DNA from: Chrysomallon squamiferum
Lineage: Eukaryota > Animalia > Mollusca
DNA: 64,000 nt
Direction of reading: 5' to 3'
Assembly (NCBI GenBank): GCA_012295275.1
Contig: CM022670.1
Location: forward strand, 5,766,001 to 5,830,000
Shown here: positions 3,308-48,699 of the stretch, in pieces
How the letters are laid out: every line of letters begins with the position of its first letter
How positions within the stretch are numbered: the stretch's first letter is position 1
Notes under the pieces: generated by a model
Databases searched by the model: none
Told to the model about the DNA's origin: nothing
Seen by the model: the letters and a program-made list of their open reading frames with translations, nothing else
Made by a program: the position numbers and the translations under genes

Positions 3308-3352
<45 letters not shown>

Positions 3353-3777
3353 TTCTGAAGTTAGGAACTCAAACATCTGTATAAACCATGCTTACAGTGA
3401 TTTAACAGGATTAACAGGCAACAGAACCAAACAAACATCATTGTACAATAAATATACCTCTGTCGTGTCAGTCTTATTTACTTCATATATTTTTTTTAAC
3501 TAATACTCTGTGAGTACTTTGTAATTAAACTTTGTTTACTATTTTATTCAATGTTTGTAACAACTGATTATTAAAACTCATATTTCAGGGTCTGCTACAA
3601 GAACTGCTGTTAAACTGCGATGGGCAATTGAAAAAGGAGCTCATCCAGTTTGCTGCATACTATGAACATCGACTACAGCTGGGACAGAAAGCTATTTATC
3701 ATCTTGAAGCTTTTGTGGCCAAATTTATGGCAATTTACAAACGATTTTTTGAGGAGGGACTCGCAGAACTGTTCTAA
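512..3777 (+). CDS. RFC3: Replication factor C subunit 3 (clamp loader, AAA+), about 355 aa, 8 coding exons
   Basis: Exons 512-598, 927-1132, 1309-1406, 1501-1682, 1945-2081, 2287-2385, 3204-3273, 3589-3777. All introns are GT-AG and the frame is continuous (1068 nt). Motifs: [10 protein letters not shown], Walker [34 protein letters not shown]-terminal [10 protein letters not shown]. Confidence 0.97.
3314..3348. repeat. (TA)n microsatellite in RFC3 intron 7
   Basis: Direct reading of the sequence. Confidence 0.9.
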
Positions 3778-25400: not shown

Positions 25401-26715
25401 ATAAAATGATAGAATGAGGGAGAGGTTATAACTCACATGTATTTATACATGTCAGTTATAACCTCTCCCTCAATCTATCATTTTGTTATCTATTTCACTT
25501 ACTTGTTTCTTTGTGTTTGTGTTTCTTAGTAAAATCACACACTTGTCTTCAACCTGAACATTATAATTACACTGTTGTGTGTTTGTTTTTCAGCTGACAC
25601 ATTTGGCTATCTGGGGAAGCATTGCCTGCTGGTTTGCCTTTCTTGTAGTCTACAGTCATATCTTTCCTCATCTGAAGCTTGCTCCAGAGATGGTTGGGAT
25701 GGTAACTTGAACACATCTTACTTATTTTACGTTTTTCTTGTATATAATATGTTTGATAATAGTAGAGGAATGATGACCTATTTCATCTTACAGCTGTTTA
25801 TTAATTATTTAATAATTAGAAAAAAATTATAACTGAATTTTACAACAACAAAAAACCACATTACAAACCTATGTACTTTTAATGTGCAATTTTTTTCTAA
25901 ACTGGCAATTTAGTGTGAAAGCTTTATGACTATAATTATTATGATTTGTACTTTTTGTGTAAAAATGATTTCTTCCATATTTTCAGGATATACATGTTTA
26001 TGGCTGTTCTCTGTTCTGGTTGGGTCTTATCATCGTTCCAATGATAGCCCTGTTTAGAGACTTTGTTTGGAAAGTGTATGTATCACACACAATACTAATA
26101 ATTTTATATTATAATATCTATCACAATCTGGTTGTTACATGGTTTGTTATTCAGCTGCTAATTGTTATCTCTGTCATTATTTATTATGTTTTACTCAAAC
26201 AATTGTCTAAAGTAATAGCAAAATCCTAAATACATTTTTTTACTTACAGAATTAAACGCACTTACTTCAAGACAGCACGCCACTACATACAGGAGCTAGA
26301 ACTCAACAACAAGATTCCCATTCTGGAACCAGGGTCACCGAAGTTGAAAAGGTTTGATATCAGATTATTACATCTTTTTATTATTAAAGTGGCTTAATTC
26401 CAGCCATTACTCATACATGAAAACTTATGGCATTTATTTTCCAATCCACTTAAAAAAACAAACAGTAATTGGATATCTAATTGTTAAAAAATAAAAATAT
26501 GCATTAAATATAATTTTCCAAAGAATTTTTGTTTATTTTTATTTTTTATTTTTGAATAGACAGAGATTCATAATATTTTAAGGAGAATTTAAGTTTATAT
26601 TCATGTACAATTTTTATTTTTAGTTACTGATGACATTAATTTAAGTAACATTGTTTTATCATTATAGTGCTAGCCTTTGTACACTAGCCCATCAGTATTT
26701 ATTTCTATAAATTCC

Positions 26716-26758
<43 letters not shown>

Positions 26759-29700
26759 TATAAAGATCTCTTCATTTATTTACTTGTCATGCCTGTACAT
26801 TTATTATTTTCAACATCAAGCCTGTAGATTTGTGATTTTAAATGTGTGTTCAGGTACAGACCTATCAGTGAGCGAGCCAAACTTCTCAGTTCTACTGCAC
26901 TTGGTCGACAGCCTGGACGAATAACTTCAGCCACCCCAACCCCACGTGAGTTTTTATTTTATTTACTTACATGTTGTAAATTTCTTTCGACACTTTATTT
27001 ACTTAAAGGCCATTTTTCAGTTTTACTGTGTTTTTGTTGTCTTATTTAATCAGTTGTTGTCATGTAATTAAAACATTTAGTTAACATGGTGTTTAATAAA
27101 GTTTTTGTTACAGTAAATAAACGTATTTGTGACTGAATTTTAATTTAAAAGTTTTGTAACTTTATTTTACTTTTAATATTTATGGCTGTATCTTAATTAA
27201 AGTTTTTGTGACTTTATTTTGATTAAAATTTATGTATTGATGGTGTCAGTGACTAGATTAGTGTAATTGTAAGCATGCAATTATTTCATTTATTCAGCTC
27301 CTTCACCTTCACCTTCACGTAAGTGTCACTTTTTTGACAAAAAACATTTAGTAATGGTTTCTGGTCTGCTTTTTCTAGTTTCTAACCTCTGATGCTGACT
27401 TCTGTTTACTACAGACTATCATCAACATATTCATGTCTATCTTTCAGTGACAGTAATTCTAAATTTTGTGTTTCCTTACAATAGTCTCAACACTAATGTT
27501 TATCTTTGAGTAACATATTTTATATATGACACCTAACACAGATCTTTACACTTTACTTACCTTGAATAACTTTAATCTGTTTACTTTGTAAATGTTACAT
27601 TGAATAACAGTCAATTCTTTACTTTGTAAATGATTACATTGAATAACTATAAAATCTTTACTTTGTAAATGTTACATTGAATAACTATGAACTCTTTATT
27701 TTATAAATGATTATGATGAATAACTGTAAATGTTACACTGAATAACTGTAAACTCTCTACTTTATAAATGTTACATTGAATAACTGTAAACTCTTTACTT
27801 TGTAAATGATTACACTGAATAACTGTAAACTCTTTACTTTGTAAATGTTACATTGAATAACTGTAAACTCTACTTTATAAATGTTACATTGAATAACTGT
27901 AAACTCTCTACTTTATAAATGTTACATTGAATAACTGTAAACTCTTTACTTTGTAAATGATTACACTGAATGGTAATAGCCTCTGCATTTTACACTTGTC
28001 TATTTCAAATAGCAATGACCTCTACTCTATACACATTACCTTTAACCTTTAGATACATTTATACAGTAACCACTAACCTTTAGATACTTTATACATGAAT
28101 ATTTACCAATGTATAACATTAACCTGTACTTTATGTATGTTTATCTTAGTTCTTTTGGTTTGTTCATTATGACTGGTTTGTTTACTTCTGATGCACACTT
28201 TGTGTAATAACACTAACCTTTGCCTGCATGTTTATCTTTGAGTAACATGCATTCTATTATACACACACACATATAGGCCAACATGATAGGTAGATCAGTA
28301 TCAACTCAGTATGTATCTTGTGTTATTTCACAGTTGTTAGAAACATCTTATTATTGTCTAAGATGTTTCTCTAAGTAACAGAATACACTGGTCAGCAAAC
28401 AGTGTATTGATATATTACTGTTCAGTTTTTAAACACAAACAGTACAATTAAAAGTGTAGTGTTTTGGCAGTAACAACAGATTATTTTAAGAGTTAATCTA
28501 ATAATTTTATTTTACTATTTGAAGTGTCAGTTTTGCAAAAGTAGAACAATTTTCAGTTGGCTGAAGAATTTCATAGAAAAAATTAGCATCTCATCCTTGC
28601 ATTCAGAGATTGAGGCAAATTTTTGTTTGTTTTTCTTTTTTTAACTTTTTTTTCTTCCACCTCCCCCCCTAGTAATACAAATTACTGTTGCATTTACATT
28701 TTAATGTTCATAATATTTTTTTACTGTTTGTTTTTGCAGGATTTATACTCCTATTTACATTATTATTGTTGTTGTTCTGTTCTCAGGATACACAGTGTTT
28801 CTCCTTTTTTAACATTACTGCCTGTGATCAGCTGTTTATTTTCAGTATTAAACCAGTGCAGTGTATTACAAATAAAACAGCTGACAAGAACAGCCAGATC
28901 ATCAGTATTTATTGTCAGTTCAGAGATCTGCTGTTAGATTGTCACTAATACAAGACTTAGGAATGATGCTGTCTCAAACAAACTTTAGCTTTTGGTGTTA
29001 CTTTTCTAAATACTTATTTTTTTATCAACTATACATTTTAATTTTTTTTTAATTTTTTTTTTAATTCATCAAATCATTTCACTGTTGAATTTTCATTTGA
29101 TTTGAATCTAGTGTTTACATTTTGTTTGTTTTTGTTTTATATTTCTAATTTGTAATTTCTTTTTAATGTAAAATGATATATGAAAACTAGGAATGAAATA
29201 AGTTAAAATCAAGAGACAAAATGGACTTCCACTAAGAATTTTATCTCTGTCAAACATCCTTTCATCTGTCTATTTGTTCTCAGTGGTCATTAAAGATATA
29301 TTAATCACTCAGGGTAGTGTATGCAGTGATGTCACTAGTTTGCTTCATATTCATCTTCCTAAACTCGTCTTCCTATATTGATGTTTGTAATAGTCATCTT
29401 GCAATACTCATCTTTGTGTTTTCATCTTCCTATACTCACCTCATACTCATCTTTGTAAACTCATCTACCTATACTCATCTTCCTATACTCACTTTTCTAT
29501 ACTCATCTTTATAAGCTCATCTTGATATACTTATCTCCATATACTCATTTTGTCAACTCTTTCAATTGAAATCAGAGAGACTAGAAAATTAGTAATTTCA
29601 AAAGAGTTTAATTTTTTTTATTTTTTTTTTATTTTTATAGATTAAAATAGATATTTCAATGGTTATTAAGTCTTTTTGTTGCACTTAATACAAACTACTT

Positions 29701-32700
29701 ATCCTATTTATAGGTAAATCTTCATATTGCTTATGAATTGGAGTTTAATTATTAAAAACAATAGCAACAAGAAGACAAATCCATAATAGTGAACTCTTGT
29801 AATACTGAATTATTGCAATATGAACAAAAGTTAGGTATTAGTGTGATTTAAAAAAAATTTCATGACTTTATTTTAATAGATTTGTAAAATTATAAAAACA
29901 GGCCAGAGATAGATGTAAAGTTACAAAATGATCTGTGTTAATTAAAGCAATATAATCTAAATCTAATAAAACATTTGAAATAAAGAGTCATATTGAAACC
30001 AGATGTAAGTAAATAGGCAGATCATGTACGACTGTCCCTTTAAATCAGGGATTAAATCATAATACCAGTTTCCATGTCAGTACTGATAAATGTGAGTCAG
30101 TAATAATTTTTGTTCTGAGAGACTTTGACAGAAAATGTTCTATGCATCTTTATTTAACAACTCTAACAGAAAAGAAATCATAAAGACATTTTTGAAATAC
30201 CTTTTTCAATGATAGATTGTAGAAATTACTCCAGTTCCAAAATTACCAGTGTCAGCTAGGCTTGTCTTTACAACCACACTAGTTATGGAGGTGGAAATGA
30301 TATCAAAAACAAATATATGACACAAGGAATACAAATACTGCATAACTCAGTACATGAATAATGCAGCATACGTTCATTCCAGGAATATAATGACAAGCTT
30401 TAAAATACATTAATTAGTTTCATTGTTTTAGCTGATGAATACTTGCATAATGGATGTTGAACGACATACTTAAATACAGACCTCAAAACATGATTTTGAA
30501 ATAGGGTTCAGTTACTCTGCTATATTATTTAAGTGACATAATTATTTCAAATGTTTTACAGTAAGTTCATACCAGACTTTTTTTTTTTACTGTAGCATTC
30601 ATGTAATTATTTCATTTATTTAGCTGCTTCATCCTCGTCTTCATGCAAGTCTCATACACATCTAATCTCATTATTGGATTTTTATTTAAATTACATGATA
30701 AATATGTTTACTTTGATAACACTAACTATATATGTATTTCATGAAATGATTTTTATATTTTATATTTACATATCATTTAGTTATAACTTTCATATATTTA
30801 AATACTCACTGATTTATATCAAAGATTTTTTTTTTTTTCACAGATTTTGTTTTGATTCCTGTTGGCTGTTTGTTGCTTTTAATTGCTATTGACTAGCATT
30901 GCAGTTCTCATAGTGTGGTCTACAAGACCATGTCATGTATTTTGCAAGGTCATAATAATACTAATACCTTCTGTTACTTGATTTTAATAGCTGTATTTTG
31001 TACAAACAAAAGCTCTTTGTTGTCCACTTGGTTTTTTTACAGTGTAAACATTACTGATGGGAAAATGTTTGAGAACCACAGGACAAGAGTAAGAGATCAG
31101 AATTTGGAATACAGTGTCAGCCTATGTTAGAGAGTAGAAATTTGTTTAATTTAGCCAAAAATGCTATGTTACTATAATTATGTTAATCATAATTTAGTCA
31201 ACTTTAACTCAGACATTTAAAATTAAACATCTTTATAAAGGTTTATAATAATTTTGTTGCTGAACAATTTCAGAAGAGAAATTTACTTTTGGTCCTCAAC
31301 TAGGCAAGTATCATTTATGTTGAGTTCAGAGAGCCTGCAAAACTTGTTATTTGTTTCAGAATACTGTTTCAGTTTATTTTTTAATTGTTGAAAATAGATT
31401 TCAGTTTTTAGTTTTATTTAAAAATATGCCAATTTCATATTTAAAGTCACAAAGTGATCTGTTTTAAATTAAAAAAGAGTAAGATATGAACTATGAAATG
31501 TATTATAATACTTGTAAAATATTTGAAATAAAGATTCATGTTCAAATCCAATGTAAGTAAATTGACAGATCACACATATTGTGCCTTTAAATTAGGTATT
31601 AAATTTTAATACCAGTGTCCATGTTAACACTAATAAATGTGTCAGTAATAATTTTTTTATTGTAATATTTTGACAGAAAATGTTCTATGCATCTTTATTT
31701 GACAACTAACAGAAAAGAAATCATAAAGACATTTTTGAAGACAAAAAAAATAAATGTTAAAGTTATTTTCAAAGTGCCTTTCAAAGTAATAGATTGTAGA
31801 AATTACTAAAGTTACAGAGCATTTCTCAATATTAAATGGTATATATTTGTAACCTCACAAACTATTTAGATATACAAAAACATACATGACATCACAGATA
31901 TAACTATAAGTATACATAAATTACAGCTTGATTTCACTGAACTAAATCAGTTCACTTCTACATTCCTCATTTTTGTGATATTTTTAATTACTGTCACGTT
32001 GACATTCATGTAATTATTTCATTTATTTAGATTCTTCACCCTCATCTTCACGTAAGTCATCTACAGCTCATTATTACTTCCTTCCTTAATAACATGATAA
32101 ATGTGTTTAACTTTGTTAAAATACTAACCTATATTTCATAAAATAATTTATATATTTTATATGTTTACATCGTAAGTAACTGTAACTTCTGTATATTGAA
32201 ATGTGTACCACTGGATAATTCTAACCTCTACTCTTGACATGTTACCTGACATTACATACAAGTCCTTGCTACTGACTAGGCCTGCAGCTCTCAAAGTGTG
32301 GTCCACAAAACCATTTCATGTGTTCTGCAATGTCAGAATTATTTTGATAATAATACTAAGACATTCTCTACCTTTTATTACTTTCATTGATTTAGATAAA
32401 TGTAACTTTCACAAATAAAAGCTCTTTGTTGTCCCCATATTTTTTTGAAGTGTAAACATTAATAACACCAAAATGTTTGAGAACACAGGTCAGGACTAAG
32501 AGATCAGAATGTAGAATACGCTGTCAGCCTATATTAGAAAATATAAATAAATCTGTTAAATTTAGCTGAAAAGATTAATCATGTTTGTGGTAATTCAGTA
32601 AATTTTTTATCAGGCATTTTGAAATGTTATATTTTGTAATGTTTCAAAATACATTTTATTGCTGAACAATTTCAGAGCAAAAACTAGCTTCTGGTTCTCA

Positions 32701-34475
32701 ACAAGGCAAGTATTATTTCAGTTGAGTTCAGAGATATTGGAAAACATGTATTTGTTTCAAAACAGTCTCAGTTTATTCTTTATATATTCAGATTTTCAGT
32801 TTTAATTTTTATTTATTTAATTCTAATTTGTTTGGTTTTTTTTTTTCTTTTTTTGTTTTTTTTTTTTTTTAAGTATTCACATTGTTCATTGCTGTATTGG
32901 GGAATTATCATTAAAAATATTTTAAAAAGTGTAATAGTGAGTTCTTGTAATACAAACACTAAAGGTGTAATTAATTGAGTTTTCTTTTCTTTTCTTTTTC
33001 TCCTATAGTTTTTTTTTTTTTTTTTTTTTTTCTTTTCTCTTTCTGGAACTGTATTTTAATGGGTTTGTAGACTTACAAAAACAGGCCCATTTTAAATATA
33101 AAGTCACAAAGACATTTATTTTATATTTTAAAAACCCACAAAGAACAACCTACCATATAGCACTGATAAATGCCAGTCAGTCATAATTTTTGTATTGTGA
33201 AATTTTGACAGAAAATGCTTCATATGTCTTTTATTTACCAATTCTAATAGAAAAAAAATATAACTAAAGAGGTTTTTGAAATGCCTTTCTGAATGATAGA
33301 TTGTAGAAATTGCTCAAACAGCAGAGAATTTTTCAGTATTTTGTTAAGAATATCTTCACACAAGTTCTCAACAAATGGAATTGGAGTGATTTGAAAAACA
33401 AATTTATGACACAAACAAAATGAATATTTGTGTAACTGAAAACACAACATGCAACTTTCATTTCAGCTCAATCAGTTCATTTCTACATTATATATTTAAG
33501 TTTTTGTGATATGTTTAATTACTGTCACATTGACATTCATGTAATTATTTCATTTATTTAGCTATTTCACCCTCATCTTCACGTAAGTCATCTACAGCTC
33601 ATTATTACTTCTTTCCTTAAATAACATGATAAATATGTTTATCTTTGTTAAAACACTAACCTATATTTCATAAAATAATTTATATATTTTATATGTTTAC
33701 ATTGTAAGTAACTGTAACTTCTGTATATTGAAATGTGTACCACTGGATAATTCTAACCTCTACTCTTGATATGTTACCTGACATTACATACAAGTCCTTG
33801 CTACTGACTAGGCCTGCAGCTCTCAAAGTGTGGTCCACAAAGCCATTTCATGTGTTCTGCAATGTCAGAATTATTTTGATAATAATACTAAGACATTCTC
33901 TACCTTTTATTATTTTAAGTTAATAACACCAAAATGTTTGAGAACACAGGTCAGGACTAAGAGATCAGAATGTAGAATACGCTGTCAGCCTATATTAGAA
34001 AATATAAATAAATCTGTTAAATTTAGCTGAAAAGATTAATCATGTTTGTGGTAATTCAGTAAATTTTTTATCAGGCATTTTGAAATGTTATATTTTGTAA
34101 TGTTTCAAAATACATTTTATTGCTGAACAATTTCAGAGCAAAAACTAGCTTCTGGTTCTCAACAAGGCAAGTATTATTTCAGTTGAGTTCAGAGATATTG
34201 GAAAACATGTATTTATTTCAAAACAGTCTCAGTTTATTCTTTTATATATTCAGATTTTCAGTTTTAATTTTTATTTATTTAATTCTAATTTTTTTTTTTT
34301 TCATTTATGTTTGTTATGTTTTTTTTTTTTTTTTTTTTTTTAGTATTCACATTGTTCATTGCTGTATTGGGGAATTATCATTAAAAATATTTTAAAAAGT
34401 GTAATAGTGAGTTCTTGTAATACAAACACTAAAGGTGTAATTAAGTGAGTTTTCTTTTCTTTATTTTCTCCTATA

Positions 34476-34506
<31 letters not shown>

Positions 34507-37500
34507 CTCTTTCTGGAACTGTATTTTAATGGGTTTGTAGACTTACAAAAACAGGCCCATTTTAAATATAAAGAGATTTATTTTATATTTTAAAAACCCA
34601 CAAAGAACAACCTACCATATAGCACTGATAAATGCCAGTCAGTCATAATCTTTGTATTGTGAAATTTTGACAGAAAATGTTTCATATGTCTTTTATTTAC
34701 CAATTCTAATAGAAAAAAAAAATGTCAGTATTTTGTTAAGAATATCTTCACAAGTTCTCAACAAATGGAATTGGAGTGATATGAAAAACAAATTTATGAC
34801 ATAAACAAAATGAATATTTGTGTAACTGAAAACACAACATGCAACTTTCATTTCAGCTCAGTCAGTTCATTTCTACATTATATATTTAAGTTTTTGTGTT
34901 ATGTTTAATTACTGTCACTTTGACATTCATGTAATTATTTCATTTATTTAGCTATTTCACCCTCATCTTCACGTAAGTTATCTACAGCTCATTATTACTT
35001 CTTTCCTTAAATAACCTGATAAATATGTTTATCTTTGTTAAAACACTAACCTATATTTCATAAAATAATTTATATATTTTATATGTTTACATTGTAAGTA
35101 ACTGTAACTTCTGTATATTGAAATGTGTACCACTGGATAATTCTAACCTCTACTCTTGACATGTTACCTGACATTACATACAAGTCCTTGCTACTGACTA
35201 GGCCTGCAGTTCTCAAAGTGTGGTCCACAAAGCCATTTCATGCGTTCTGCAACGTCAGAATCATTTTGATAATAATACTAAGACTGTATTTACCTTTTAT
35301 TACTTTCATTGATTTAGATAAATGTAACTTTCACAAATAAAAGCTCTTTGTTGTCCCCATATTTTTTTGAAGTGTAAACATTAGTGACACCAAAAGTTTG
35401 AGAACACAGGACAAGACAGATCAGAATGCACTGTCAGCCTATATTAGAAAGTATAAATAAATCTTTATAATTTCGGCAAGAAATTCTAAATTATAGTTAG
35501 TGCTGAAAAGATTAATCATGTTTATGGTAGTTTAGTCAATTTTTACTCAGACATTTTGAAATTTTAAATTTTGTAACGTTTTAAAATACATTTTATTGCT
35601 GAACAATTTCAGAGCAAAAACTAGCTTCTGGTTCTCAACGAGGCAAGTATTATTTCACTTGAGTTCAGAGAGATATTGGAAAACATGTATTTGTTTCAAA
35701 CCAGTTTCAGTTTATTTTTTTATGTAGTTCAAAATAGTTTTCAATTTTAATTTTTATTTATTTAATTTGTTTTTGATGTTTTTTATTTTTTATTTAATTT
35801 TTTTAATACAATGTGCTTTCCCATTTATTTTAGTGTTGACATTGTTCATTGCTGTATTGGGGAATTATCTTTTTAAAAACCCATTTAAAAAATATATACA
35901 TAAAGAAAAGTGAGTTCTTGTAATACAAACACAAATTTACTAAAGGTGTAATTAAGTGAGTTTTTCTTTTACTTTCTTTCTTTATTTTATTTTGTTTTTT
36001 TTAAATTTTTTCTTCTTCTTTTGAACAGAATTTTAATGGGTTTGTAGAGATTTATTTGAAATTTTAAAAACCCACAAAAAACAACCTATCAAATGAACAT
36101 AGAAATGTATTAGAAACCTAATAAAACATTTGAAATAAAAATTAATTTTCAAATCAGATGTAAGTATGACTGACTGTCCACATTAAATTAAAGATTAAAA
36201 CAGTCACAGTTTCCACTTAGCACTGATAAATGCCAGTCATAATCTTTGGATGGTGAGATTTTGACAGAAAATGCTTCATATGTCTTTTATTTACCAATTC
36301 TTGTAGAAAAAAAATAACTAAAGAGGTTTTTGAAATGCCTTTCTGAATGATAGACTGTAGAAATTACTCAAACTGCAGACATTTTTTCAGTATTCAGCTA
36401 AGCATTTCTTTGCAAGTTCTCAACAAATGGAGATGGCAGGTGATATGAAAAACAAATTTATGACAAGATAAAGAAAATGAATATTTGTGTAACTACAAAC
36501 ACAAAATACAACTCAATTTCATTTAGCTCAGTCAGTTCATTTCTACATTATATATTTAAGTTTTTGTGATATGTTTAGTTACTGTCACTTTGACATTCAT
36601 GTAATTATTTCATTTATTTAGCTATTTCACCCTCATCTTCACTTAAGTCATCTACAGCTCATTATTACTTTTTTCCTTAAATATGTTTATCTTTGTTAAA
36701 ACACTAACCTATATTTGATACAATTATTTTTATATTTTTACATTTTAAGTAACTGTAAGATCAATATATTTAAATGTTTACCATTGGACAATACTAGCTT
36801 CTAGTGTTGACATGTTACCTGACAAACCCCTTGTAGACCACAAGATCATTTCATGTGTTTTGCAAGATCAAAACTGTTTTCATAATAATACTAATATCTT
36901 CTGTACCTTTTATTACTTTCATTGATTTTGATAGCACTAACTTGCAGAAATAAAAGCTCTTTGTTATCCCCATACTTTTTTAAAGTGTAAACATTACTGA
37001 CACAACATGTTTGAGAAGTACAGGACAAGACTAAGAGATCAGAATACAGAATATACTGTCAGCCTATATAAGAAAGTATAAATAAATTGGTAAAATTTAG
37101 CCAAGATTTCTAAATTATAGTCAGTGCTGAAAAAATTGATCACGTTTGTGGTAATTTAGTCAATTTTTACTCAGACATTTTGAAATGTTATATTTTGTAA
37201 TGTTTTAAAGTACATTATATTGCTGAACAATTTCAGAGCAAAAAGTAGGTTCTGGTTCTCAACGAGGCAAGTATTATTTCATTTGAGTTCAGAAACATTG
37301 AAAAAAAATTTATTTGTTTCAAAACAATGTTTCAATTTATTTTTATTTTTTTTACATAATTCAAAATAGTTTTCAATTTTAATTTTTATTTATTTAATTT
37401 TAATTTTATATTTTATATATATTTTTTTTTAATTATTATTATTATTATTTAATACAAACTACTTTCCCATTTATTTTAGTGTTGACATTGTTCATTGATG

Positions 37501-39114
37501 TTTTGGGGAATTAATTTAAAAGAATAAAAATAAAAAAGTGTAATAGTGAGTTCTTGTAATACAAACACAAATTCACTAAAGGTGTAATTAAGTGAGTTTT
37601 TCTTTTTTTTCTTTCTTTTTTTTTTTTTTTTTTCTTTTTCTTTTTTTTCGTCTTCTGAACTGTATAAAAATTAATTTTTCAAATCAGATGTAAGTAAATT
37701 GACAGATTATGTATGACTGACTGTCCACATTAAATCAAAGATTAAAACAGTCACAGTTTCCACTTAGCACTGATAAATGCTAGTCATAATCTTTGTATTG
37801 TGAGATTTTGACAGAAAATGCTTCATACATTTTTATTTACCAATTCTAAAAGACAAAATTTAATTCTAAAGATGTTTTTATGAAATGTCTTTCTGAATGA
37901 TAGATGGTAGAAATTACTCAAACTGCAGAGAACTTTTCAGTATTCAGCTAAGCATAACTTTGCAAGTTCTCAACAAATGGAGATGGCAGGTGATATGAAA
38001 AACAAATTTATGACATAAAATAAAGAAAATGAATATTTGTGTAACAGAAAACACAAGAAAAACAACTTGATTTCATTTAACTAAATCAGTTCATTTCTAC
38101 ATTATATATTTAATTTTTTGGTGATATGTTTTATTACTGTCACACTGACATTCATGTAATTATTTCATTTATTTAGCTACATCACCCTCACCTTCACGTA
38201 AGTCATCTACAGATCATTAATATTTTTTTCTTAAATATATGATAAACGTTTATCTTTGTTAAAACACTAACCTATACTTCATACAATAATTTTTATATTT
38301 TATATGTTTACATTTTACCTGACAATACATATACACTTCATACATGTTTAATATGTTACACAAAATCTTTAAAATATCATGTTAACTGTTGAACAGCTCT
38401 AACTTCTAATTAAATATTTATCACGGATTTCATTATACAAGAGATAAACAAATGATATCTAACAACTGTTGATAGAAAACGTTATTTAGATTTCATTAAA
38501 TCTGCAGTCCTCATAGTGTGGTCCACAAATCCCTTGTAAACCATAAGATCATTTCATGTGTTTTGCAAGGTCAAAACTGTTTTCATAATAATACTAATAT
38601 CTTCAGTACCTTTTATTACTTTCATTGATTTTGATAGCTCTAAATTGTAGAAATAAAAGCTCTTTGTTGTCCCCATATTTTTTTTAAAGTGTAAACATTA
38701 CTGACACAACATGGTTGAGAAGCACAGGACAGGACTAAGAGATCAGAATGCAGAATACACTGTCAGCCTATATAAGAAAGTACAAATAAATCTGTTAAAT
38801 TTAGCCAAAAATTCAAAATTATATTTAGTGCTGAAAAGATTAATCATATTTGGTAATTTAGTCAATTTTTAATCAGTCTTTTGAAATGTTATATTTTGCA
38901 ACATTTTAAAATAAATTTATTGCTGAACAATTTCAGAGAAAAGAATAACTTCTGGTTCTCGAGGCAAGTATTATTTCTGTTGAGTTCAGAGACATTGGAA
39001 ACAAATTTATTTGTTTCAAAATGCTGTTTCAGTTTATTTTTTTATATAGTTTAAAATAATTTAAATTTTTAATTTTTATTTATAAAATTTTTATTTTTTG
39101 TTATTTACTTTATT

Positions 39115-39145
<31 letters not shown>

Positions 39146-41151
39146 GTTTTATTATTATTTTATTTAATACAAACTACTTTCCATCTATTTTGGTGTTGCC
39201 ATTGGTCACTGCTGTATTGGGGAATTAATTGTTTTTAAAATAAAATATTGTAATTGTAAACACAAATTTACTAAAGGTGTAATTAAGTTGGACTTTTTGG
39301 TAGGGGGGTTCTTTTGTGTGTTTTTTTGTTTGTTTGTTTTTGGGGGGTTTTTTTGGGGTTTGTTTAGCACTGATAAATGCCAGTCAGTCATAATCTTTGT
39401 ATTATGAGATTTTGACAGACAGTGCTTCATAAGTCTGTATTTACCAATTGTAATAGAAAAAATTATAATTGTAAAGATGTTATAGAAATGCCTTTCTGAA
39501 TGATAGATTGTAGAAATTACTCAAACAGCAGAGAATGTTTCAGTATTCTGTTAAGCATGTCTTTGCAAGTTCTCAACAAATGTACCTGGAATACTATGAA
39601 AAATAAATTTATGACATAAAGAAAATGAATATTTGTGTAACTGAAAACACAAAATACAACTTAATTTCATTCATCTCAAATGGTTCAGTTCTATAGTCCA
39701 TATTTGTTTTTGTTATAATGTTTAATTACTGTCACTTTCACATTCATGTAATTATTTCATTTATTTAGCAACTTCACCCTCATCTTCAAGTAAGTCACCT
39801 ACAGCTCTAATCTCATTATTACTTTTTTCCGTATTTACCACATAAATCCATTTAACTTTGATAAAAACTAACCTATACTTTATTCCGTAATTTTTTTATT
39901 TTATGTTTACATTTTAAGTAACTGTAACTTCTGTGTATTTAAATGTTTACCATTTGACAATACTAACCTCTTCTCTTAACATGTTACCTGACAATACATC
40001 TACACTTTATACACGTTTAGTATGTTACACAAAATCTTTAATATATGTTAACTGTTGAACAGTACTAACTTTTAATTATTTATCTCTGACTTCATTATAC
40101 AAGAGATGTACAAATGAACAACTGTTGATAGGAAACTATTTAGATTTCATTGAATATTCATTTTATCATTTTTACTTAAGTATCAAAGAATCTGTTTTTT
40201 CTTGTTGATTCCTGTTATTAGTTTGTTGTATTTTTATTACATGTCCTTGCTACTGACTAGGCCTGCAGTTCTTATAGTGTGGTCCACAAAACCATTCATG
40301 CAAAGTCAAGAGTTATTTAATAATAATACTAAGATCTTAACCTTTCATTACTTTCACTGATTTTAATAGCTGTAATTTGTACAAACAAAAGTTCTTTGTT
40401 GTCCCCATATGTTTTAAAGTATAAACATTAGTGACACCAAAATGTTTGAAAACCACAAGACAAGACTAAGAGATCAGAATGCAGAATACACTGTCAGCCT
40501 ATATAAGAAAGTATAAATAAGTCTGTTAAATGTAGCCAAAAAGTCTAATATATAGTCGGAGCTGAAAAGAGTAATCATGTTTTGTAATTTAGTCAATTTT
40601 AATCAGACATTTTGAAATGTTACATTTTGTAACATTTTAAAATACATTTTACTGCTGAACAATTTCAGAGCAAAAAGGATCTTCTGGTTCTCAACGAGGC
40701 AAGTATTATTTCAGTTCAGAGATACTGGAAAAAAATGTATTTGTTTCAAAACACTTTTTCAATTTATTTTTTTTATATAGTTTAAAATAGTTTTCATTTA
40801 TATTCTTTAATTATTATTTTTTTATTTTTTTATTTTTTGTTATTTACTTTATTTTATTTATTTATTTACTTATTTTTAATTATCATTAAAAGTGTAAACC
40901 AGTCTGTTAAATTTAGCCCAAAAGAGTTAATGATATCAGTTGTAATTTAACCAACTTTGAATTTATTCAGACATTTTGATGATGTTTTAAAATATTTGGT
41001 TTTTTTATTGCTGAAAAATTTCAGAGCAAAAATTAGCTTCTGGTTCTCAACAAGGCAAGTATTATTTCTGTTGAGTTCAGAGAGCCTGCAAAACTTGTTA
41101 TTTTTTCAAAGCACTTTCATGATAGTTTTTTATAGTTGAAAATAAGTTTCA

Positions 41152-41203
<52 letters not shown>

Positions 41204-44200
41204 GTTAATGTTTAATACAAACAGTTATTTTAATGTTCATGTTATTATTGAGGACTGATTTGTAAAAAAATACTAAAAAGTCATAATTATGAAAATTAGT
41301 AATGAGTTCTTCTAGTACAAAAAAAAATGTATGAATTATATTTTATTATTATTATTTTTTATTATTTTTTTTTTTTTCTTTATCATTTTAACTGTATTTG
41401 AACTGATTTATAGAATTATAAAAGAAGGACAGTTTTAGATATTAAGTCACAAAGTAATTTATTTTAAAATTAAAACCACCGTCAAATGATTGATGAAATA
41501 TATTATAATTGTAATAAAACATTTGAAATAAAGATCCATGTTCAAATGAGATGTAAGTAAATTGTTAGGTTATGTGCAAGTGTCCACTTTAAACCAGTGA
41601 ATCACAATACCTGTTGTATTTACTCACATTTGTTCATTATAAACCAATATTCAACTCTGTATATCACTGACATAAGGAATATGGATTTTGTAAAACTCAG
41701 TAGTTGAAGAATAAAACTTAATCATTCAGTTAAATCAGTTCATTTCTATATTCTATATTTAAGGCTTTTTTCACATTGACATTCATGTAATTATTTCATT
41801 TATTTAGCTACTTCACCCTCATCTTCACCTCAGTCATCTACATCTCTAACCTCATTATTACTTTTTTCCCTTAAATAATATTTTAAATATGCTTATCTTT
41901 GATAAATGCTAAACTATATTTCATACAATAATTTTTATATTTTATTTGTTTACATTTTAAGTAAGTGTAACATCCATATATTGAAATGTTTACCATTGGA
42001 TAGTACTAACCTCTACTCTTGACATGTTACCTGACAAACTCTTGTAGACCCCAAGTCTATTTCAGGTATTCTGTGAGGTCATAACTATTTTGATAATAAT
42101 ACTAAGATAGCTTTATTTGACTTTATTACTCTCATTTGAAACATTATATTATTTATTATTCAGTCAGCTTTTAATTAGACAACATGAAGTATTACATTTT
42201 CTAATGTTTTGAAATATTTTTGTTGCTGAACAGTTTCAGAGCAGAAAATAGCTTCTGGTTCTCAACGAGGCAAGTATTATTTCTGTTGAGTTCACAGAGG
42301 CTGGACAATTTGTTATTTGTTTAAAAATACTGCTCCGTTTTAGGTTTTTGGAGGTTTTTAATTTATTTATTTTTTGTAGATTTTGGAGGGGGCATTGATG
42401 ATTTGAAAAAGTTTGTTTCATTACCATCTAAGCCTTATATGTTTATCTTTGATGAGATTAATCTTTAAAATTTAATAATTTTTATTTTTAATATCAAAAA
42501 CATTTTTAAAACAAATTTGTTGCTGATTCAATTTACTAGTTTGTTGTTTTTTATTGTAAGTCATTGCTACTGAGTTTGCCTTCAGTTCTTGGAGTATGGT
42601 GCACAAGCCCCTTATTGACCCCAAAACTATACCACAGATTCTGAGGTCAAAACAGTTGTCTTAATAAGACTTAAGACTTTATTAACCTTTTTTACTATCA
42701 TTTCAAACAGTAAATTATAGTTGGTGCTGAAAGGGTTAATTATTTTAGTCTTAATTTAGTCATCTTTTTCTCTCAACATGTTGAAGTTTTACATCTTTAT
42801 AAAGGTTTAAAGTATTTTTGTTGCTGAACAATTTCAGAGCAAAGATCAACTTCTGGTTCTCAACAAGGCAAGTATTGTATCAGCTGAATTCAGAGAGGCT
42901 GTAAAACCTATTTGTTTCAATTCATTTTGAAACACAATACTGTTTCAGTTTATGTTGTTTCAAAATGCTGTTACAGTTTGCCTTATTTCATAATGCCATT
43001 AAAAAATGTGTTCTGAGTTGTAAAATTATAATTAATAGAAAACTTAAATACACTTTTTATAATAATGCTTGAAGTTGTTTGGATTTTGTGATTTTATTTT
43101 ATTACATAGGTGGAAATTATTAAAATAGAACCATATCAATTCTAAAGTCACAAATTGATAAATACTTTTATTTTCCATTAATGGATATAGAAATGATGTA
43201 AGAAAGCTGGTGTAATACAAAAAGATATACATCTACACAGGTGTGATGACACTTTAACCATGTTGAACAGTATTAAAAAGTGTCTTTGTTCAGAAATAGT
43301 GATCTGACACTTATATTTCATTCAGTAACCTATAATTATTTCAAATGTCTTTCAGTACGTTCCACATCATATGAGTCTCTTTTTTTCTTCTGTTAAATCT
43401 AAAATCAGTTCATTTCTATATTCCGTATTTGTTTTTGTTATAATGATTAATTACTGTCACTTTGACATTCATATAATTATTTCATTTATTTAGCTGTTGC
43501 ACCAACATCATCACATAAGTCACCTACAGCTCTAACCTCATTATTACTTTTTTCTTTAAATAAAACAAAATATTTAAGTTGAGAAATATTAACTTAAATG
43601 TACATAAACTTTATCCAGTAATTTGCCAGGTACATTTTAAGTTGTTATAATCTGCATCACTTTATATTTTCATCTAGGACACAATCTAATATCTACACAC
43701 ACTATACACTATTTATCTTTGAACAGTACTACATTACTAACTTTTACTCTATATATATGTAGTGCCAAAAATCTTCTACTAACCTTAACAATTCCTTTTA
43801 CTAATAATATACAATTTTGGTAATTTCAAAAAATTCATAGTTTACCTTTGAACATTTCCTAGACCATTTCACGCTGGCTTGACATTGGTCAGGGAAAAGC
43901 CAGGCAGTTTTGGAAAATACTAACAGATGTCAGAGGAAATTGTATTTTCTTTATGGATGCATGATATTGTATATGTTTGTGAAATACTGTAGATAATGAA
44001 TAAAATTATAGGTTTAAAAACAACAATTTATATTTATTTCTAATCAAAGTATGGCACTGAAATGGCAGATTGATTGCAATTATTTAATTATATATCAGTG
44101 TTCCAAAATGTGAGTAATTGTTTATTTGTATATGCAGCAGTCAAGATTTGAAGTAATTCAGTTACCATGATTGGCTAAAACATTATGAATACATGGTTTA

Positions 44201-47200
44201 AGGAGGGAGAATATTAGTGATGATGGAGTTTGGTTCATAACTTATAATGATAATAGACAATTAATATTTAGTTTTTCTTTCTCATCAAAAAACTGCCAAG
44301 CAAAGTTGTATGTCCATTACTAATTATAGTCTGTAAACAGTGAACAGTTTGTGAAACAGTGCATGACCATTTACAATTTCCCATAACATAAACAACACAT
44401 TTCCCCAAATCAGTTTATTCCCCATTTTAGTCTTAGCATGTTTACTTTTGATCAGCATTAACTTCCATATACCTAACATATTTACCTTTGAGTAATGCTA
44501 ATCTCCACACTTAATGTTTACCTTTGAGTAATACTAATCTCCACACTTAATGTTTACCTTTGAGTAATGCTAATCTCCACACTTAATGTTTACCTTTGAG
44601 TAATGCTAATCTCCACACTTAATGTTTACTTTTGAGTAATGCTAATCTCCACACTTAATGTTTACCTTTGAGTAATACTAATCTCCACACTTAATGTTTA
44701 CCTTTGAGTAATACTAATCTCCAAACTTAATGTTTACTTTTGAGTAATACTAATCTCCACACTTAATGTTTACCTTTGAGTAATACTAATCTCCACACTT
44801 AATGTTTACCTTTGAGTAATACTAATCTCCACACTTAATGTTTACTTTTGAGTAATGCTAATCTCCACACTTAATGTTTACCTTTGAGTAATGCTAATCT
44901 CCACACTTAATGTTTACCTTTGAGTAATGCTAATCTCCACACTTAATGTTTACTTTTTGAGTAATGCTAATCTCCACACTTAATGTTTACCTTTGAGTAA
45001 TACTAATCTCCACACTTAATGTTTACCTTTGAGTAATGCTAATCTCCACACTTAATGTTTACCTTTGAGTAATGCTAATCTCCACACTTAATGTTTACCT
45101 TTGAGTAATGCTAATCTCCACACTTAATGTTTACTTTTGAGTAATGCTAATCTCCACACTTAATGTTTACCTTTGAGTAATACTAATCTCCACACTTAAT
45201 GTTTACCTTTGAGTAATACTAATCTCCACACTTAATGTTTGCCTTTGAGTAATACTAATCTGAACATACTGTACTTTTTTATCTTTTAGTAACAGTAATT
45301 TCTATATTTTATATGTTTGCTTTGTTTAACTTTACACAGTACATACAATTAGCCATACTCTTTTTAGTGAATATTCACAAACAGAAAGTCATTTACATCA
45401 CCTTAAAACTCTTTATTGCCTCTAATTACATCTGAATTCATCGAAAAATATCAGTGTAGTGAAATGTTTTTAAACACAGTTAAGCTGTTTTACTCAATAT
45501 TTTGAAGTATAGAGGACTTCTGTTGTAATTTTTATTGGTAAACAATTTCAGAGGGTAAAAAAGGTTCTAGTTCTAAAAAGCATGGCAAGTATCACTTCAG
45601 TTCAATTCAGAACAGGGTGGAAATCTTTTTGTTTGAAGTTTGCTTAACAAATAATTAATTTCAATTATTTAAACATGTTTGCTTTTTCTTTTTCTTTTTT
45701 TTTCTTTTCTTTTATTTCTTTTTTTTCTGTTTTGTTTTTTGCTTCTTTTTTTCACTTTTTTTTGTTGTTTTTGTTTTGGAAGATGTTCTGTGAGTATTGT
45801 TTCTTGTTTTGTTTTTTTCACAATTTTGTTCCATTTACTTTTTATTGTTTACAGGTTTTTGTTTTTGTTTCTTTCTTAGTTTGTTTTTTGGGGAGTTCTT
45901 TTTTTTTATCATTATTATTATTTTTAGGATTTGTTTTGGGTGGGTTCATTACAAAAAGCTTATTTTGACTTCTGATTGTATGCAAGTTAATATTATGAAC
46001 TTAAAAAACAACAGTTGACTTTTAAACTTTTCTTTATATTCTTTTTTTATTTTTTTTATTTTTATTTTTTTCTATACCTTTATCCTAATTTACTTTCCAG
46101 TAATTGCAAAAAGAAATTTAAATTAAAAAAAATTATCATAAACAATTTCCATACACTGTATTATCATAGAACCTCAAAATCAGCTAAATTAAACCAGGTT
46201 TTAAACAGCAATTGTGCTATAATTATTTTCTGATACTTTAAATGTTTGCTTAGCTAAACCAACTAAACACGGGTGCATAGCCTATGACATGGTCATTATA
46301 AAAATATCAGCCTGTAATTCACATTTGTCTACATCATGGTATTTATAAAGATATCAAACTGTGTATGTTGTCATTTGTTACATGATGTTCATACTAGACT
46401 GGTTTTTCATACAGTAAACATTGAATTTCTATTATTATTATATTTATTATCTGCTAGAAATATGAGGTTATTTTAAAATTAAAATCAGCTTTGTTAACTG
46501 ATGAAAAGTAAAACAATCTGATAGAAAGTCAGACAAAAAGCTAAGGAAAGAGAGAAAATAAGACATGACGAATCAATAATCAGTGAAACAACCAGGGTCA
46601 ATCAATGCATTAAAAAACAAACATGAGTATTGAAGAAGTATTGAAAAAAAAAGTGCTTGTAAAAACTTGTATGAAAAGGAAAAATAAAAATAAAGGCCAA
46701 TTATGTTTTTTAGTTTAAAAGTGTCAAACATATTGTAAATTTCAGTAGACATCTTTGTTTTACGTATTGTTTGGTAGGTGCTTGTTTGCTTTCACACAAT
46801 AAATGCTTTGGCTACTGGTGTACAAAATAATAGCAAATACTTGAAATATATGTGTGTGTGTGTGTGTGTGGTTCCTCTGAAGCAGTGTTTTCAATCTTTT
46901 TGTTTCGCTATATTAACTTCTCTCTTCTTTTTTTTTAATTCTTTTTCATCACTTTTGTGAGTTGTTTTGTTTGTTTGTGTGTATTTTTCTTTGCATTTCC
47001 CAGAGGTCTGAACTTGTTTTCACTTTTCATTTGTTTGTATTGTAATTTTAATGGGTTTGTTTGTTGTTGTTTTTTTTTTTTTTTTTTTTTTACAAACATA
47101 GACCCAAATACAAACACACTTTCTTATTAATATAATGTGAAGCCAGGTATTTTAGATACTAAATGAATTATTTGCAGAGGGAGATGGGTTGCTATGGTGA

Positions 47201-48434
47201 CTGTATTGTTTTAATGCATGCCAAAACAGAAGGACTGAAAGAAAAATAGTTTTAAATATTACCATATGTTTGACATCTGTTTCATTTGCCTTGGTATTTT
47301 TTAAGTTCCACTTCATATCTCATTTAAAAATTTCACAAATAGTATCTTTATTAAAAATATCAGATAGTTTTTGAATAATGACACAAACAAGACTTTCAAC
47401 AGGACAGATAATAGTTTAATAACAACACAGGTAACCCTCTTTAACAGTAATGTAAAAACCTGCAACAATAACAAAAAGCATGTGTTATAATATATATTAA
47501 AATATGTACATTGTTTTGTTGAGTTTATCTATTTTCATTCACATTATTAACTTTATATGTTAATTTTTGTTTGGGGGGAGTTCAGATAGTTAAGAATAAA
47601 TATATTTAATTAGCATAAAGAAATATTTCTGAGAAATAAAAAGTAACATGTTATAATAGGGTTACATAATGTGTTATATTTTGTATTTGTTGTGATTTGT
47701 GGTTATTGAAATAGTGGTAAGTAGTTCATACAGTAATTTAAACAATAATTATTTAAAGATTTGTATACGTTTGTATATTTTCTTTTTTATGCAGATGGGT
47801 ATGCTTTCTCCCAGGAAGAACATGGAGTGGTGGGACAGGTCAGTGCTAAACACATTTGTATTATTTCTCAAACAGTTAAAAACTTGCATGTAACTTTTTT
47901 TAAGTTCTTAAATATCTCTCTCTACAATTCATATTAAGAAAATTGATTTTGTTTTAATTTATTTTTTTTTTAAATTGCTTTCATCAATAAATACATTATA
48001 ATTTACTTTTGTGAAAACGTTTTTATTATTTTGATAATGTTATGTGAAAATATTAGTTCACCATTTTGTTATATTTGTGCATTATAAGTTGATTTGTTAA
48101 ATTTGAGTATTCTTAAATGAGAAATATTGTGAAAAATAATTACAGAATCATAAAGATGTGAAATAATGTGAATAATGTTCTTTTAAACTGAGTTATGGAA
48201 TATTTTAGACATGTTTGTATAATATCTTGTTACTGAGCACTGTTTCAATAGGTCTTACAGAAGACACAGTCACTCTGTTAATATCAGAGAACATTATTTT
48301 GATACAATCTGTTACTCTGTGTTATTAACATGTAGTCATTCTAGTAATATTTATAGACTCAGTATATGTCTTTAGTACATTCAGTTTCTCACTGATGTTG
48401 ACAGACTCAACCAAGGTATTGTATTTAGTAAACT

Positions 48435-48472
<38 letters not shown>

Positions 48473-48699
48473 CATTGGTAGACTCAGTAAATGTACATAG
48501 TTGGTAAACTGTCTGTTTATGTAGCGTTGGTAGACTCAGTCTGTAAATGTAGATGGTTCACTCTGTGTGTGTGTGTGTGTGTGTGTGTAATTATATATAT
48601 ATATATATACACACACACATATATAATGATCTGTTTATTTTTCAGTCGGATGTTATCCGAGCATATGACACAAGAAAAGGAAAGCCAAAAGGCTATTAG
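4499..48699 (+). CDS. ATP8A1: P4-ATPase aminophospholipid flippase, ATP8A1/ATP8A2 (Drs2-like) ortholog, about 1152 aa without optional microexons
   Basis: Core exons: 4499-4544, 12113-12230, 12528-12627, 12935-13033, 13333-13378, 13716-13830, 14456-14525, 14868-14995, 15268-15338, 15552-15649, 15962-16070, 16261-16388, 16768-16845, 17266-17354, 17652-17718, 18121-18232, 18367-18449, 18643-18692, 18943-19012, 19306-19390, 19553-19692 (GC donor), 19939-19986, 20319-20409, 20587-20651, 20908-20997, 21278-21360, 21955-22138, 22313-22423, 22963-23037 or 23398-23472, 24272-24394, 24658-24736, 24882-24943, 25310-25366, 25594-25701, 25987-26075, 26250-26351, 26854-26945, 47795-47838, 48646-48699 (TAG). 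The frame is continuous. Motifs: IQQIP (QQ, PS-flippase type), [42 protein letters not shown]. Confidence 0.96.
7026..7355. repeat. Minisatellite, ~50-55-bp unit, about 6 copies, in ATP8A intron 1
   Basis: Recurring CAGTAAACATCAAACAGGAAATCAGATATAATTAAATTTTT. Confidence 0.85.
10270..10620. repeat. Degenerate ~20-23-bp tandem repeat
   Basis: Recurring TGTGTTAAATATATACAGTGC-like units. These explain ORF 10457-10696. Confidence 0.7.
10769..10799 (+). CDS. ATP8A1: Probable alternative first coding exon of ATP8A ([10 protein letters not shown])
   Basis: Strong Kozak context AAACCATGG, a 31-nt open stretch and a CAG|GTACCT donor in phase 1. This is the same phase as exon 4499-4544, so it joins exon 12113 in frame. 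Confidence 0.5.
21549..21880. repeat. Minisatellite, ~40-42-bp unit, about 8 copies
   Basis: Recurring TTAACTAGTCTCTGATTACAGAACACTGATCAGTGTTTTGTG. Confidence 0.85.
22963..23037 (+). CDS. ATP8A1: ATP8A mutually exclusive exon a ([25 protein letters not shown])
   Basis: TTTCAG|75 nt|GTATGT, phase 0-0, homologous to 23398-23472. Confidence 0.85.
23398..23472 (+). CDS. ATP8A1: ATP8A mutually exclusive exon b ([25 protein letters not shown])
   Basis: GGCAG|75 nt|GTATGT, phase 0-0. Many synonymous differences from exon a while [15 protein letters not shown] is preserved. Confidence 0.85.
24961..25322 (+). repeat. 36-bp tandem repeat made of a 3' splice site plus the first codons of the exon, 10 copies
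   Basis: Unit TTGTATTTTCAG|TATGTAGTTGTTACATTGTTTTAC. AGs end at 24987, 25021, 25057, 25093, 25129, 25165, 25201, 25237, 25273 and 25309. Confidence 0.95.
25403..25484. repeat. Near-perfect inverted repeat (40-bp arms, 2 mismatches)
   Basis: AAAATGATAGAATGAGGGAGAGGTTATAACTCACATGTAT-TT-ATACATGTCAGTTATAACCTCTCCCTCAATCTATCATTTT. Confidence 0.9.
27298..43514 (+). CDS. ATP8A1: Family A candidate microexons (21 nt, phase 1-1, Ser/Pro-rich), 10 copies
   Basis: All follow AATTATTTCATTTATTYAG. Copies with a GTAAGT donor: 27298-27318, 32031-32051, 33562-33582, 34952-34972, 38177-38197, 39769-39789. GCAAGT donor: 30624-30644. Broken donors: 36622-36642 (TTAAGT), 41808-41828 (CTCAGT), 43494-43514 (ATAAGT). 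The phase matches flanking exons 26854-26945 and 47795-47838. Confidence 0.7.
27555..27970. repeat. Minisatellite, ~38-bp unit, about 10 copies
   Basis: Recurring GAATAACTGTAAACTCTTTACTTTGTAAATGTTACATT. Confidence 0.9.
29345..29550. repeat. Degenerate short tandem repeat (ATACTCATCTT core)
   Basis: Direct reading. This explains ORF 29317-29514. Confidence 0.75.
29600..43800. repeat. Intronic tandem segmental duplication, about 9 modules of ~1.4-2.0 kb
   Basis: Shared blocks recur in the same order, e.g. GACATTCATGTAATTATTTCATTTATTTAG, AAAAGCTCTTTGTTGTCC, GAGATCAGAAT, TGCTGAACAATTTCAG and TTTTGACAGAAAATG. Near-identical ORFs occur at 32203, 33735 and 35125. Confidence 0.95.
31274..45584 (+). 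CDS. ATP8A1: Family B candidate microexons (27/30/33 nt, phase 1-1, GC donors), 11 copies
   Basis: TTTCAG|exon|GCAAGT at 31274-31303, 32676-32705, 34137-34166, 35613-35642, 37237-37266, 38937-38963 (27 nt), 40669-40698, 41025-41054, 42240-42269, 42838-42867 and 45552-45584 (33 nt). All are multiples of 3 and stop-free in phase 1. Consensus (Q/E)QKLASGSQ(Q/R). Confidence 0.6.
41155..41203. repeat. (TTA)n microsatellite
   Basis: Direct reading of the sequence. Confidence 0.9.
44481..45261. repeat. Homogeneous 36-bp minisatellite, about 21 copies
   Basis: Unit TTTACCTTTGAGTAAT(G/A)CTAATCTCCACACTTAATG. Period 36 (CCTTTGAG at 44485, 44521, 44557 and onward). Confidence 0.97.
48437..48620. repeat. 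(TA)n, (TG)n and (CA)n microsatellites in the last ATP8A intron
   Basis: Direct reading of the sequence. Confidence 0.9.

Follow-up and report, generated by a model that had tools for sequence, protein, structure and literature searches.

A tandem array of candidate microexons before the GYAFS exon of an ATP8A-type flippase gene in the gastropod Chrysomallon squamiferum

To our knowledge, competing RNA pairing in tandem exon arrays has been described chiefly for domain-sized exons of arthropod genes. The array considered here lies in a 64,000-nucleotide (nt) stretch of Chrysomallon squamiferum DNA (assembly GCA_012295275.1, contig CM022670.1, positions 5,766,001 to 5,830,000 of the forward strand), referred to below as the window and numbered from its first letter. 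The window contains a complete gene for an ATP8A-type P4-ATPase (flippase), and the intron before the exon that encodes the GYAFS motif of its regulatory tail contains 21 candidate microexons of two interleaved families. Each candidate is designated by its family, A or B, and its first position.

The stem-loop-duplication model and the arrays of docking sites and selectors, among them the Dscam exon 6 cluster, are treated in the accessible part of PMC6071210. The micro-exon genes (MEGs) of schistosomes are described as coding for secreted flatworm proteins with signal peptides, encoded mostly by microexons (PMC4350168, accessible part). For the flippases, the accessible parts of the reports indicate that the GYAFS tail of ATP8A2 touches the N domain and that removal of the tail raises activity (PMC11750469), that the ATP8A1 tail binds in the E2P state (PMC11775268), and that the ATP8A2 tail carries a CaMKII site (S1138) affecting activity (PMC5341728, PMC13642993); tuning of the GYAFS tether by splicing was not found in these parts of the four texts. 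According to the accessible part of 10.1101/2021.02.24.432780, eMIC-dependent neural exons are characterised by a UGC near their 3' splice site. No published description of the present array was found in the open-access literature (main texts, without supplements), and PMC9741552 does not mention ATP8.

Constraint on the array copies

The array-bearing intron (26946-47794, about 21 kb, phase 1), whose upstream end is set by an RNA joint from 26945 to 27298, contains 10 type-A candidates of 21 nt and 11 type-B candidates (one of 27 nt, nine of 30 nt and one of 33 nt), each preceded by AG. A first-pass annotation of the window had listed these candidates as symmetric exons; every one of its 21 coordinates was correct, and all 21 candidates are indeed symmetric, in phase 1 and free of stop codons. 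Its estimate that the 17 best candidates would add about 150 residues came near, the corrected figures being 18 candidates with usable (GT or GC) donors and a combined length of 159 residues. The donor is GCAAGT in all 11 B copies; A donors are GT in six of 10, GC in one (30624) and dead in three (36622, TT; 41808, CT; 43494, AT). As in Dscam-type arrays, the copies were duplicated in tandem together with flanking intron: alignments of the modules extend over hundreds of bases with 66-97% identity, 95-97% for three of them, and successive A copies are 1390-2039 nt apart except for the first interval, which is 3326 nt. A27298 is clearly similar to the other A copies over about 51 nt only. Behind it lies a decayed B remnant, which makes it probable that the original unit, too, was of the A+B type.

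The splice signals and the frame of the copies are under purifying selection, at all acceptors and at the B donors, A donors excepted, and the array copies are not neutral debris. Neutral evolution was simulated on trees built from the flanks only, using 10 B copies (B45552, which has the most diverged flanks, was excluded) and the nine array A copies. The B acceptors have 2 changes against a simulated mean of 22, and the A acceptors 1 change against 29, values as low being reached in none of 1000 simulations in either family; B donors have no change where 8 were expected. Acceptor AG, donor and absence of stops were jointly kept by the B copies in 0 of 5000 simulations, and the 3' parts of both A and B exons are constrained as well (0 of 1000). 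In the seven full modules (tree length 0.95), no change was found in the 24 columns of the A acceptor, the 15 of the B acceptor or the 6 of the B donor, while the minimum among 395 background windows of 24 columns is 4 changes. With halved branch lengths the Poisson P values were still 3e-8 and 2e-6. Both indels in B copies are of 3 nt, and among short gaps in the modules 14 of 77 are multiples of 3. Divergence of the splice sites at the rate of the surrounding module, which the first-pass annotation had named as an outcome that would speak against its proposal, is clearly not what these acceptors display. Diversifying selection in the 5' exon parts, at which pairwise identities of 0.64-0.69 had hinted, is not supported, these parts evolving at neutral rates (611 and 147 of 1000 simulations).

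A strict scan of the non-array parts of the intron for other microexon families returned A27298 alone, and no Rfam match was obtained within the intron at E values up to 0.1. Recursive splicing was ruled out by inspection, no copy beginning with GT, and a hairpin around B was rejected, the consensus fold being weak (-6.2 kcal/mol) and its covariation term unfavourable. Two minisatellites flank the module array, at 27557-27970 (units of about 38-39 nt) and at 44487-45260 (units of 36 nt); the former is about 170 nt shorter in a contig of run X5, described below.

The original microexon in RNA and in other molluscs

The flippase 3' untranslated region is contained in five sequencing runs, and assembled contigs from four of them (X1, X2, X4 and X5) were aligned to positions 26200-28500 of the window. 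Runs X1, X2 and X4 are RNA from one study; X5 is DNA-like, with introns covered, no spliced joints and differences from the window at 17 listed sites. Assembled contigs drop rare splice forms. In all three RNA runs the exon end at 26945 is joined to 27298-27318 by a GT..AG joint, and no contig of these runs links it to any other exon. After 27318 the contigs of X2 and X4 proceed into the first letters of the exon at 47795, hence the main form skips the other 20 candidates. One form thus dominates the contigs, and A27298 is used as a microexon, with an upstream joint in three of three runs and a downstream one in two of three; its skipping was seen in the models of other species only.

The 20 array copies are absent from the main contigs in the aligned segment, and one contig break is compatible with a branch into B. 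The X1 contig stops one letter past 27318. All 11 B copies share exactly one first letter with the HGYAFS exon, whereas intron retention and eight of the nine array A copies share none and A32031 shares two; a contig ending just past 27318 therefore fits a branch into a B exon, and the break is taken as a weak hint of a branch from A27298 into a B copy.

RNA contigs of all three RNA runs also cover the intronic segment 27868-28500, at depths of 4-45 against 47-98 for exons, and extend past 28500. They begin inside the 38-39-nt tandem repeat and have no joint to exons, no long open reading frame and no Rfam match; an intronic transcript, an antisense transcript or an alternative end are candidates for this RNA.

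For comparison with relatives, 89 related proteins were inspected as database isoform models, the Mytilus cluster being represented by 15 of its 37 members. A27298 is a real, ancient microexon, orthologous to a 7-residue cassette PPSP(S/T)xS of other molluscs, and is the conserved original of the array. The cassette is found with matching skip forms in models of Gigantopelta, Haliotis, Mercenaria and Mytilus, in both forms in Ylistrum, and in Patella with no skip form among those listed. A second cassette of 27-30 nt is found in Haliotis rufescens, Mercenaria, Mytilus and a cephalopod cluster; that of Haliotis rufescens has 10 residues, begins with Q and is as long as B, a likeness in length by which homology to B is not established. 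Models with none, the first, the second or both of two cassettes at this position exist in Mercenaria, Mytilus and Babylonia. These models bear out the earlier claim of a real alternative-microexon position directly before GYAFS; the gastropod and bivalve cassettes, in turn, set A27298 apart as the conserved original, where it had been treated as a copy equal to the others.

Among 63 metagenome loci with a GYAFS exon, a PSPTPS-type candidate was found in one, the bivalve-like locus L044, whose equivalent phase-1 intron of 2.35 kb contains this single exon candidate and no module repeats. The L044 candidate (positions 954-989 of that locus, 36 nt, phase 1) is a longer form of the A cassette. 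Similarity to the A and B signals was absent from the 63 loci apart from two T-rich chance matches, and the A acceptor motif had no exact match in metagenome contigs. The 30-residue upstream exon had no match among 50%-identity representatives, and isoforms with the B peptide were found neither in this species nor in relatives, eight short proteins included. The cassette in other molluscs, together with the single candidate in L044, indicates an old origin of both the site and exon A and, as far as seen, a lineage-specific amplification.

Readings of the array

The explanation that we prefer, and hold with even confidence, is that an old optional-microexon site in the ATP8A regulatory tail was tandemly amplified about tenfold as an A+B unit; the copies are likely optional cassettes, used rarely or in other tissues and probably singly or a few together, and the main assembled RNA has the original A only. 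The copies would be repressed by default. The B copies would be spliced somewhere, possibly in neurons, as the UGC kept just before the 3' splice site suggests: TGC lies at -25 to -4 before the acceptor of 10 of the 11 B copies and of A27298, and of none of the nine array A copies. This is the UGC feature of eMIC/SRRM4-dependent neural microexons, although a three-letter motif inherited from a single ancestor makes for a weak argument; its retention by the B copies would explain their skipping in a non-neural sample. By analogy with the flippases described above, inserts of 7-11 Ser/Gln/Lys-rich residues immediately ahead of GYAFS could plausibly give a longer tether or further phosphosites beside the autoinhibitory motif.

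A candidate for choosing among the copies is found in the intron itself. One non-dinucleotide 12-mer occurs there at least four times while its reverse complement occurs at most twice. This putative selector stands 45-34 nt before the A copies, exactly in five of nine array copies and as one-change variants in two more, two being without it; its partner is single, at 27447, about 130 nt downstream of A27298. The duplex of this candidate docking site with the selectors is calculated at -16.0 to -17.6 kcal/mol, the remaining copies giving -4.3 to -7.6, and among all windows scanned in the unique parts of the intron none is a better partner than this site. Leaving aside the two selector-less copies, the selector has 2 changes in 12 columns where 10.5 were simulated (as few in 0 of 3000); with branch lengths scaled to 0.6 the simulated figure is 6.9 (66 of 3000). 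When the 300 nt behind A27298 were shuffled, a 13-nt match arose in 0 of 1000 cases, and a positional version of the layout in about 1% of shuffles. We treat the pairing as a lead and not as an established result. In this picture the lone dock (27446-27458) would pair with one upstream 12-mer and loop out the intervening modules, so that a module would be picked or bypassed, much as happens in the Dscam exon 6 cluster; a duplex with the last selector might just as well serve to bypass the array. A full Dscam-like machine, in which a dock behind the ancient microexon and competing selectors would add one of about ten A/B cassettes to the autoinhibitory tether of a housekeeping flippase and so tune phosphatidylserine flipping by cell type, is doubtful.

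Several observations weigh against use of the copies as cassettes or against the support claimed for it. No RNA record includes any copy beyond A27298, in contigs that were aligned on 26200-28500, not on 28.5-47.8 kb, and that lack rare forms. The X1 break would also be explained by a heterozygous third-codon single-nucleotide polymorphism in the His codon or by another break in the assembly graph. The B peptide or repeated cassettes are present in none of the 89 related proteins. The A donors evolve at the neutral rate (5 changes against 7.3 expected; the six usable of nine equal the neutral median), the acceptors of the dead-donor A copies are nearly intact (1 change; P about 0.05 over simulated death times), which fits a role other than that of a cassette, and the B unit of the original module survives only as a decayed remnant. 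The simulations include neither gene conversion nor indels. As for the pairing, the docking site was found post hoc, a 13-nt match appears in 8 of 100 whole-intron shuffles, and 58% of 200 shuffled introns offer a partner to some multi-copy 12-mer; a conserved covarying structure around B was not found.

It is unlikely, though less so than the explanations taken up after it, that the copies are retained for their splice signals and not for their peptides, whether they serve as decoy acceptors, as regulatory elements or as entries to alternative last exons or poison exons by which the protein would stop short of GYAFS. The A acceptors are near invariant although the A donors were struck at +1 in three separate ways, the 5' parts of the A and B exons evolve neutrally, and read-through of each A copy meets a stop, within 30 residues in eight of nine array copies. 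C-termini that lack GYAFS and end in this intron occur in models of Haliotis, Babylonia, Aplysia, Mercenaria and Mytilus, and a duplex between the dock and the last selector (43449) would place 16 kb of array in a loop. Yet acceptor, donor, frame and freedom from stops are all retained in the B copies, as internal cassettes require, RNA evidence for such ends was not found, and the read-through frames vary between copies.

Rather improbable is the combinatorial cassette proposed in the first-pass annotation, a MEG-like arrangement in which many subsets of what are now 18 usable exons would produce a ladder of tail lengths. It accords with the symmetry and stop-free reading of every exon, with the constraint on the splice signals and with the two-cassette combinations modelled at this position in other molluscs. 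A common exon ladder would, however, fragment contigs, and those of the three RNA runs, all from one study, pass unbroken from 26945 to A27298, two of the three going on to 47795; no ladder was seen. RNA with a single microexon, which that annotation had itself said would count against the proposal, is what the contigs examined contain.

Still less probable, and already disfavoured, is a neutral by-product: a tandem intron amplification that happened to contain a microexon and is now ignored by the spliceosome and slowly decaying, like the mirage repeats of amphioxus, which bear splice signals without disturbing splicing (PMC3087553, accessible part). The main RNA does skip the array, three of the nine array A copies have dead donors, and there is one decayed B remnant. 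Against this, the sharp conservation is limited to splice signals and 3' exon halves in modules otherwise about 75-83% identical, and concerted evolution would not be expected to target acceptors of 15-24 nt in both families. An assembly artefact in the form of an expanded repeat is very improbable indeed, since, although three modules are nearly identical over hundreds of bases and only one module is confirmed in independent DNA, most modules differ by 15-30% and have distinct indels, and the A38177 module with its downstream flank, the one module checked, is present in run X5 at single-copy depth (44 against 46 for unique DNA), which speaks against a pure artefact.

Should the copies be used as optional cassettes, a 21-kb array of two interleaved microexon families with signals under selection, at least part of it young (some modules 95-97% identical), would show such an array system in formation, and it would directly test the stem-loop-duplication model as set out in the accessible part of PMC6071210. 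The linker before GYAFS would be a splicing-tuned regulatory site across molluscs, open to assay with ATP8A1/2 constructs. If, on the contrary, no copy is ever spliced in, it would still call for explanation that copies with dead donors have such strongly conserved acceptors.

Host gene, neighbouring features and comparison with described systems

The flippase gene is complete in the window on the + strand: residues 1-1159 of the Gigantopelta aegis protein match ordered exons from 4499 to 48693 (tblastn). Full-length homology to ATP8A together with the GYAFS tail identifies it as a P4-ATPase of the ATP8A type; the best protein matches are named ATPase IA, and the closest named proteins to one flippase exon are those of Gigantopelta (83%) and Lottia (76%). 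The features of its 3' portion are collected in Table 1.

Table 1. Exons, candidate microexons and the candidate docking site in the 3' part of the flippase gene (window positions)
Feature	Positions	Strand	Basis
Exon ending ...RITSATPTP + 1 nt, phase 1	26854..26945	+	RNA joints on both sides in 3/3 RNA runs; tblastn to Gigantopelta ATP8A
A1 (A27298), ancient 21-nt microexon PPSPSPS, in main transcript	27298..27318	+	GT..AG joint 26945->27298 in runs X1, X2, X4; peptide also in Gigantopelta isoform models X1/X2, absent from X3
Candidate docking site, single reverse complement of array-A 12-mer	27446..27458	+	Sequence; putative function
Decayed B remnant, twelfth B, acceptor AG lost, no GCAAGT donor	28558..28600 (near 28575)	+	Sequence comparison
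A copy PASSSSS, GC donor, without selector	30624..30644	+	Sequence
B copy, 30 nt, 10 residues	31274..31303	+	Sequence
A copy HSSPSSS, GT donor, selector at 31986	32031..32051	+	Sequence
B copy, 30 nt, 10 residues	32676..32705	+	Sequence
A copy PISPSSS, GT donor, selector at 33517	33562..33582	+	Sequence
B copy, 30 nt, 10 residues	34137..34166	+	Sequence
A copy PISPSSS, GT donor, selector at 34907	34952..34972	+	Sequence
B copy, 30 nt, 10 residues	35613..35642	+	Sequence
A copy, dead donor (TT), acceptor intact, selector with one G-U-compatible change	36622..36642	+	Sequence
B copy, 30 nt, 10 residues	37237..37266	+	Sequence
A copy PTSPSPS, GT donor; present in second individual's DNA too	38177..38197	+	Sequence, run X5
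B copy QKRITSGSR, 27 nt	38937..38963	+	Sequence
A copy PTSPSSS, GT donor, selector at 39724	39769..39789	+	Sequence
B copy, 30 nt, 10 residues	40669..40698	+	Sequence
B copy, 30 nt, 10 residues	41025..41054	+	Sequence
A copy, dead donor (CT), acceptor intact, selector lost	41808..41828	+	Sequence
B copy, 30 nt, 10 residues	42240..42269	+	Sequence
B copy, 30 nt, 10 residues	42838..42867	+	Sequence
A copy, dead donor (AT), selector at 43449 intact	43494..43514	+	Sequence
Most diverged B copy, 33 nt, 11 residues, without TGC before acceptor	45552..45584	+	Sequence
Exon starting (H), contains HGYAFS	47795..47838	+	Directly after A27298 in X2 and X4 contigs; tblastn
Last coding exon	48646..48699	+	Sequence reading, tblastn

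Further upstream, the same gene contains a duplicated exon pair (22954-23040 and 23395-23475, + strand). The corresponding segment is the sole difference between isoform pairs of equal length in Haliotis, Mercenaria, Dreissena, Mytilus and a cephalopod cluster, from which an old mutually exclusive exon pair can be deduced. A GC donor is apparently also present at a constitutive exon ending near 19682 (followed by GCAAAT), so that GC-AG introns are not limited to the B copies. A Replication factor C subunit 3-like gene (600-3774, + strand) ends about 700 nt upstream of the flippase start, and two tandem HMG-box (HMGB-like) genes with acidic tails (53087-54932 and 57535-59207, - strand) stand tail to tail with the flippase.

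In comparison with the schistosome MEGs, as described in the accessible part of PMC4350168, the locus has in common many very small symmetric exons whose subsets preserve the frame. It differs in its host, a ten-helix pump, in the optional nature of the inserts and in the lack of an observed ladder and of accelerated exon evolution. Membership of the MEGs was rejected on two grounds: at most 159 optional residues stand beside a pump of about 1160 residues, and the product is a gastropod membrane ATPase, not a secreted flatworm protein with a signal peptide. The mirage minisatellites of amphioxus are likewise intronic tandem repeats with splice signals that are skipped in the main mRNA, but their units are of 10-160 bp, according to the accessible part of PMC3087553, against 1.4-2 kb here, where whole microexons and measurable constraint are present.

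The autoregulation of ATP8A1, ATP8A2 and Drs2 offers a parallel at the protein level, the GYAFS motif being conserved and the ATP8A2 tail autoinhibitory in the accessible parts of the reports. With the ordinary alternative microexons of mollusc ATP8A genes the array shares its phase-1 position, an orthologous A27298 and a second short cassette, which is common in that group; those genes have one or two cassettes and L044 is unamplified, whereas 21 candidates are spread here over 21 kb.

The Dscam exon 6 cluster, as far as it is covered by the accessible part of PMC6071210, resembles the locus in the tandem duplication of exon plus flanking intron, in dead copies amid live ones, and, if the candidate docking site acts as one, in a unique element upstream of the array that is complementary to a conserved element before most copies (here seven of nine array A copies). 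The differences are that the exons here have 7-11 codons and belong to a disordered tail instead of encoding halves of a domain, that they form two interleaved families, that the putative pairing is of 12-13 nt, and that the choice of one and only one copy does not hold, the X2 and X4 contigs containing no array copy. On balance, its closest counterpart in mode of action is a tandem exon array whose copies would be repressed by default.

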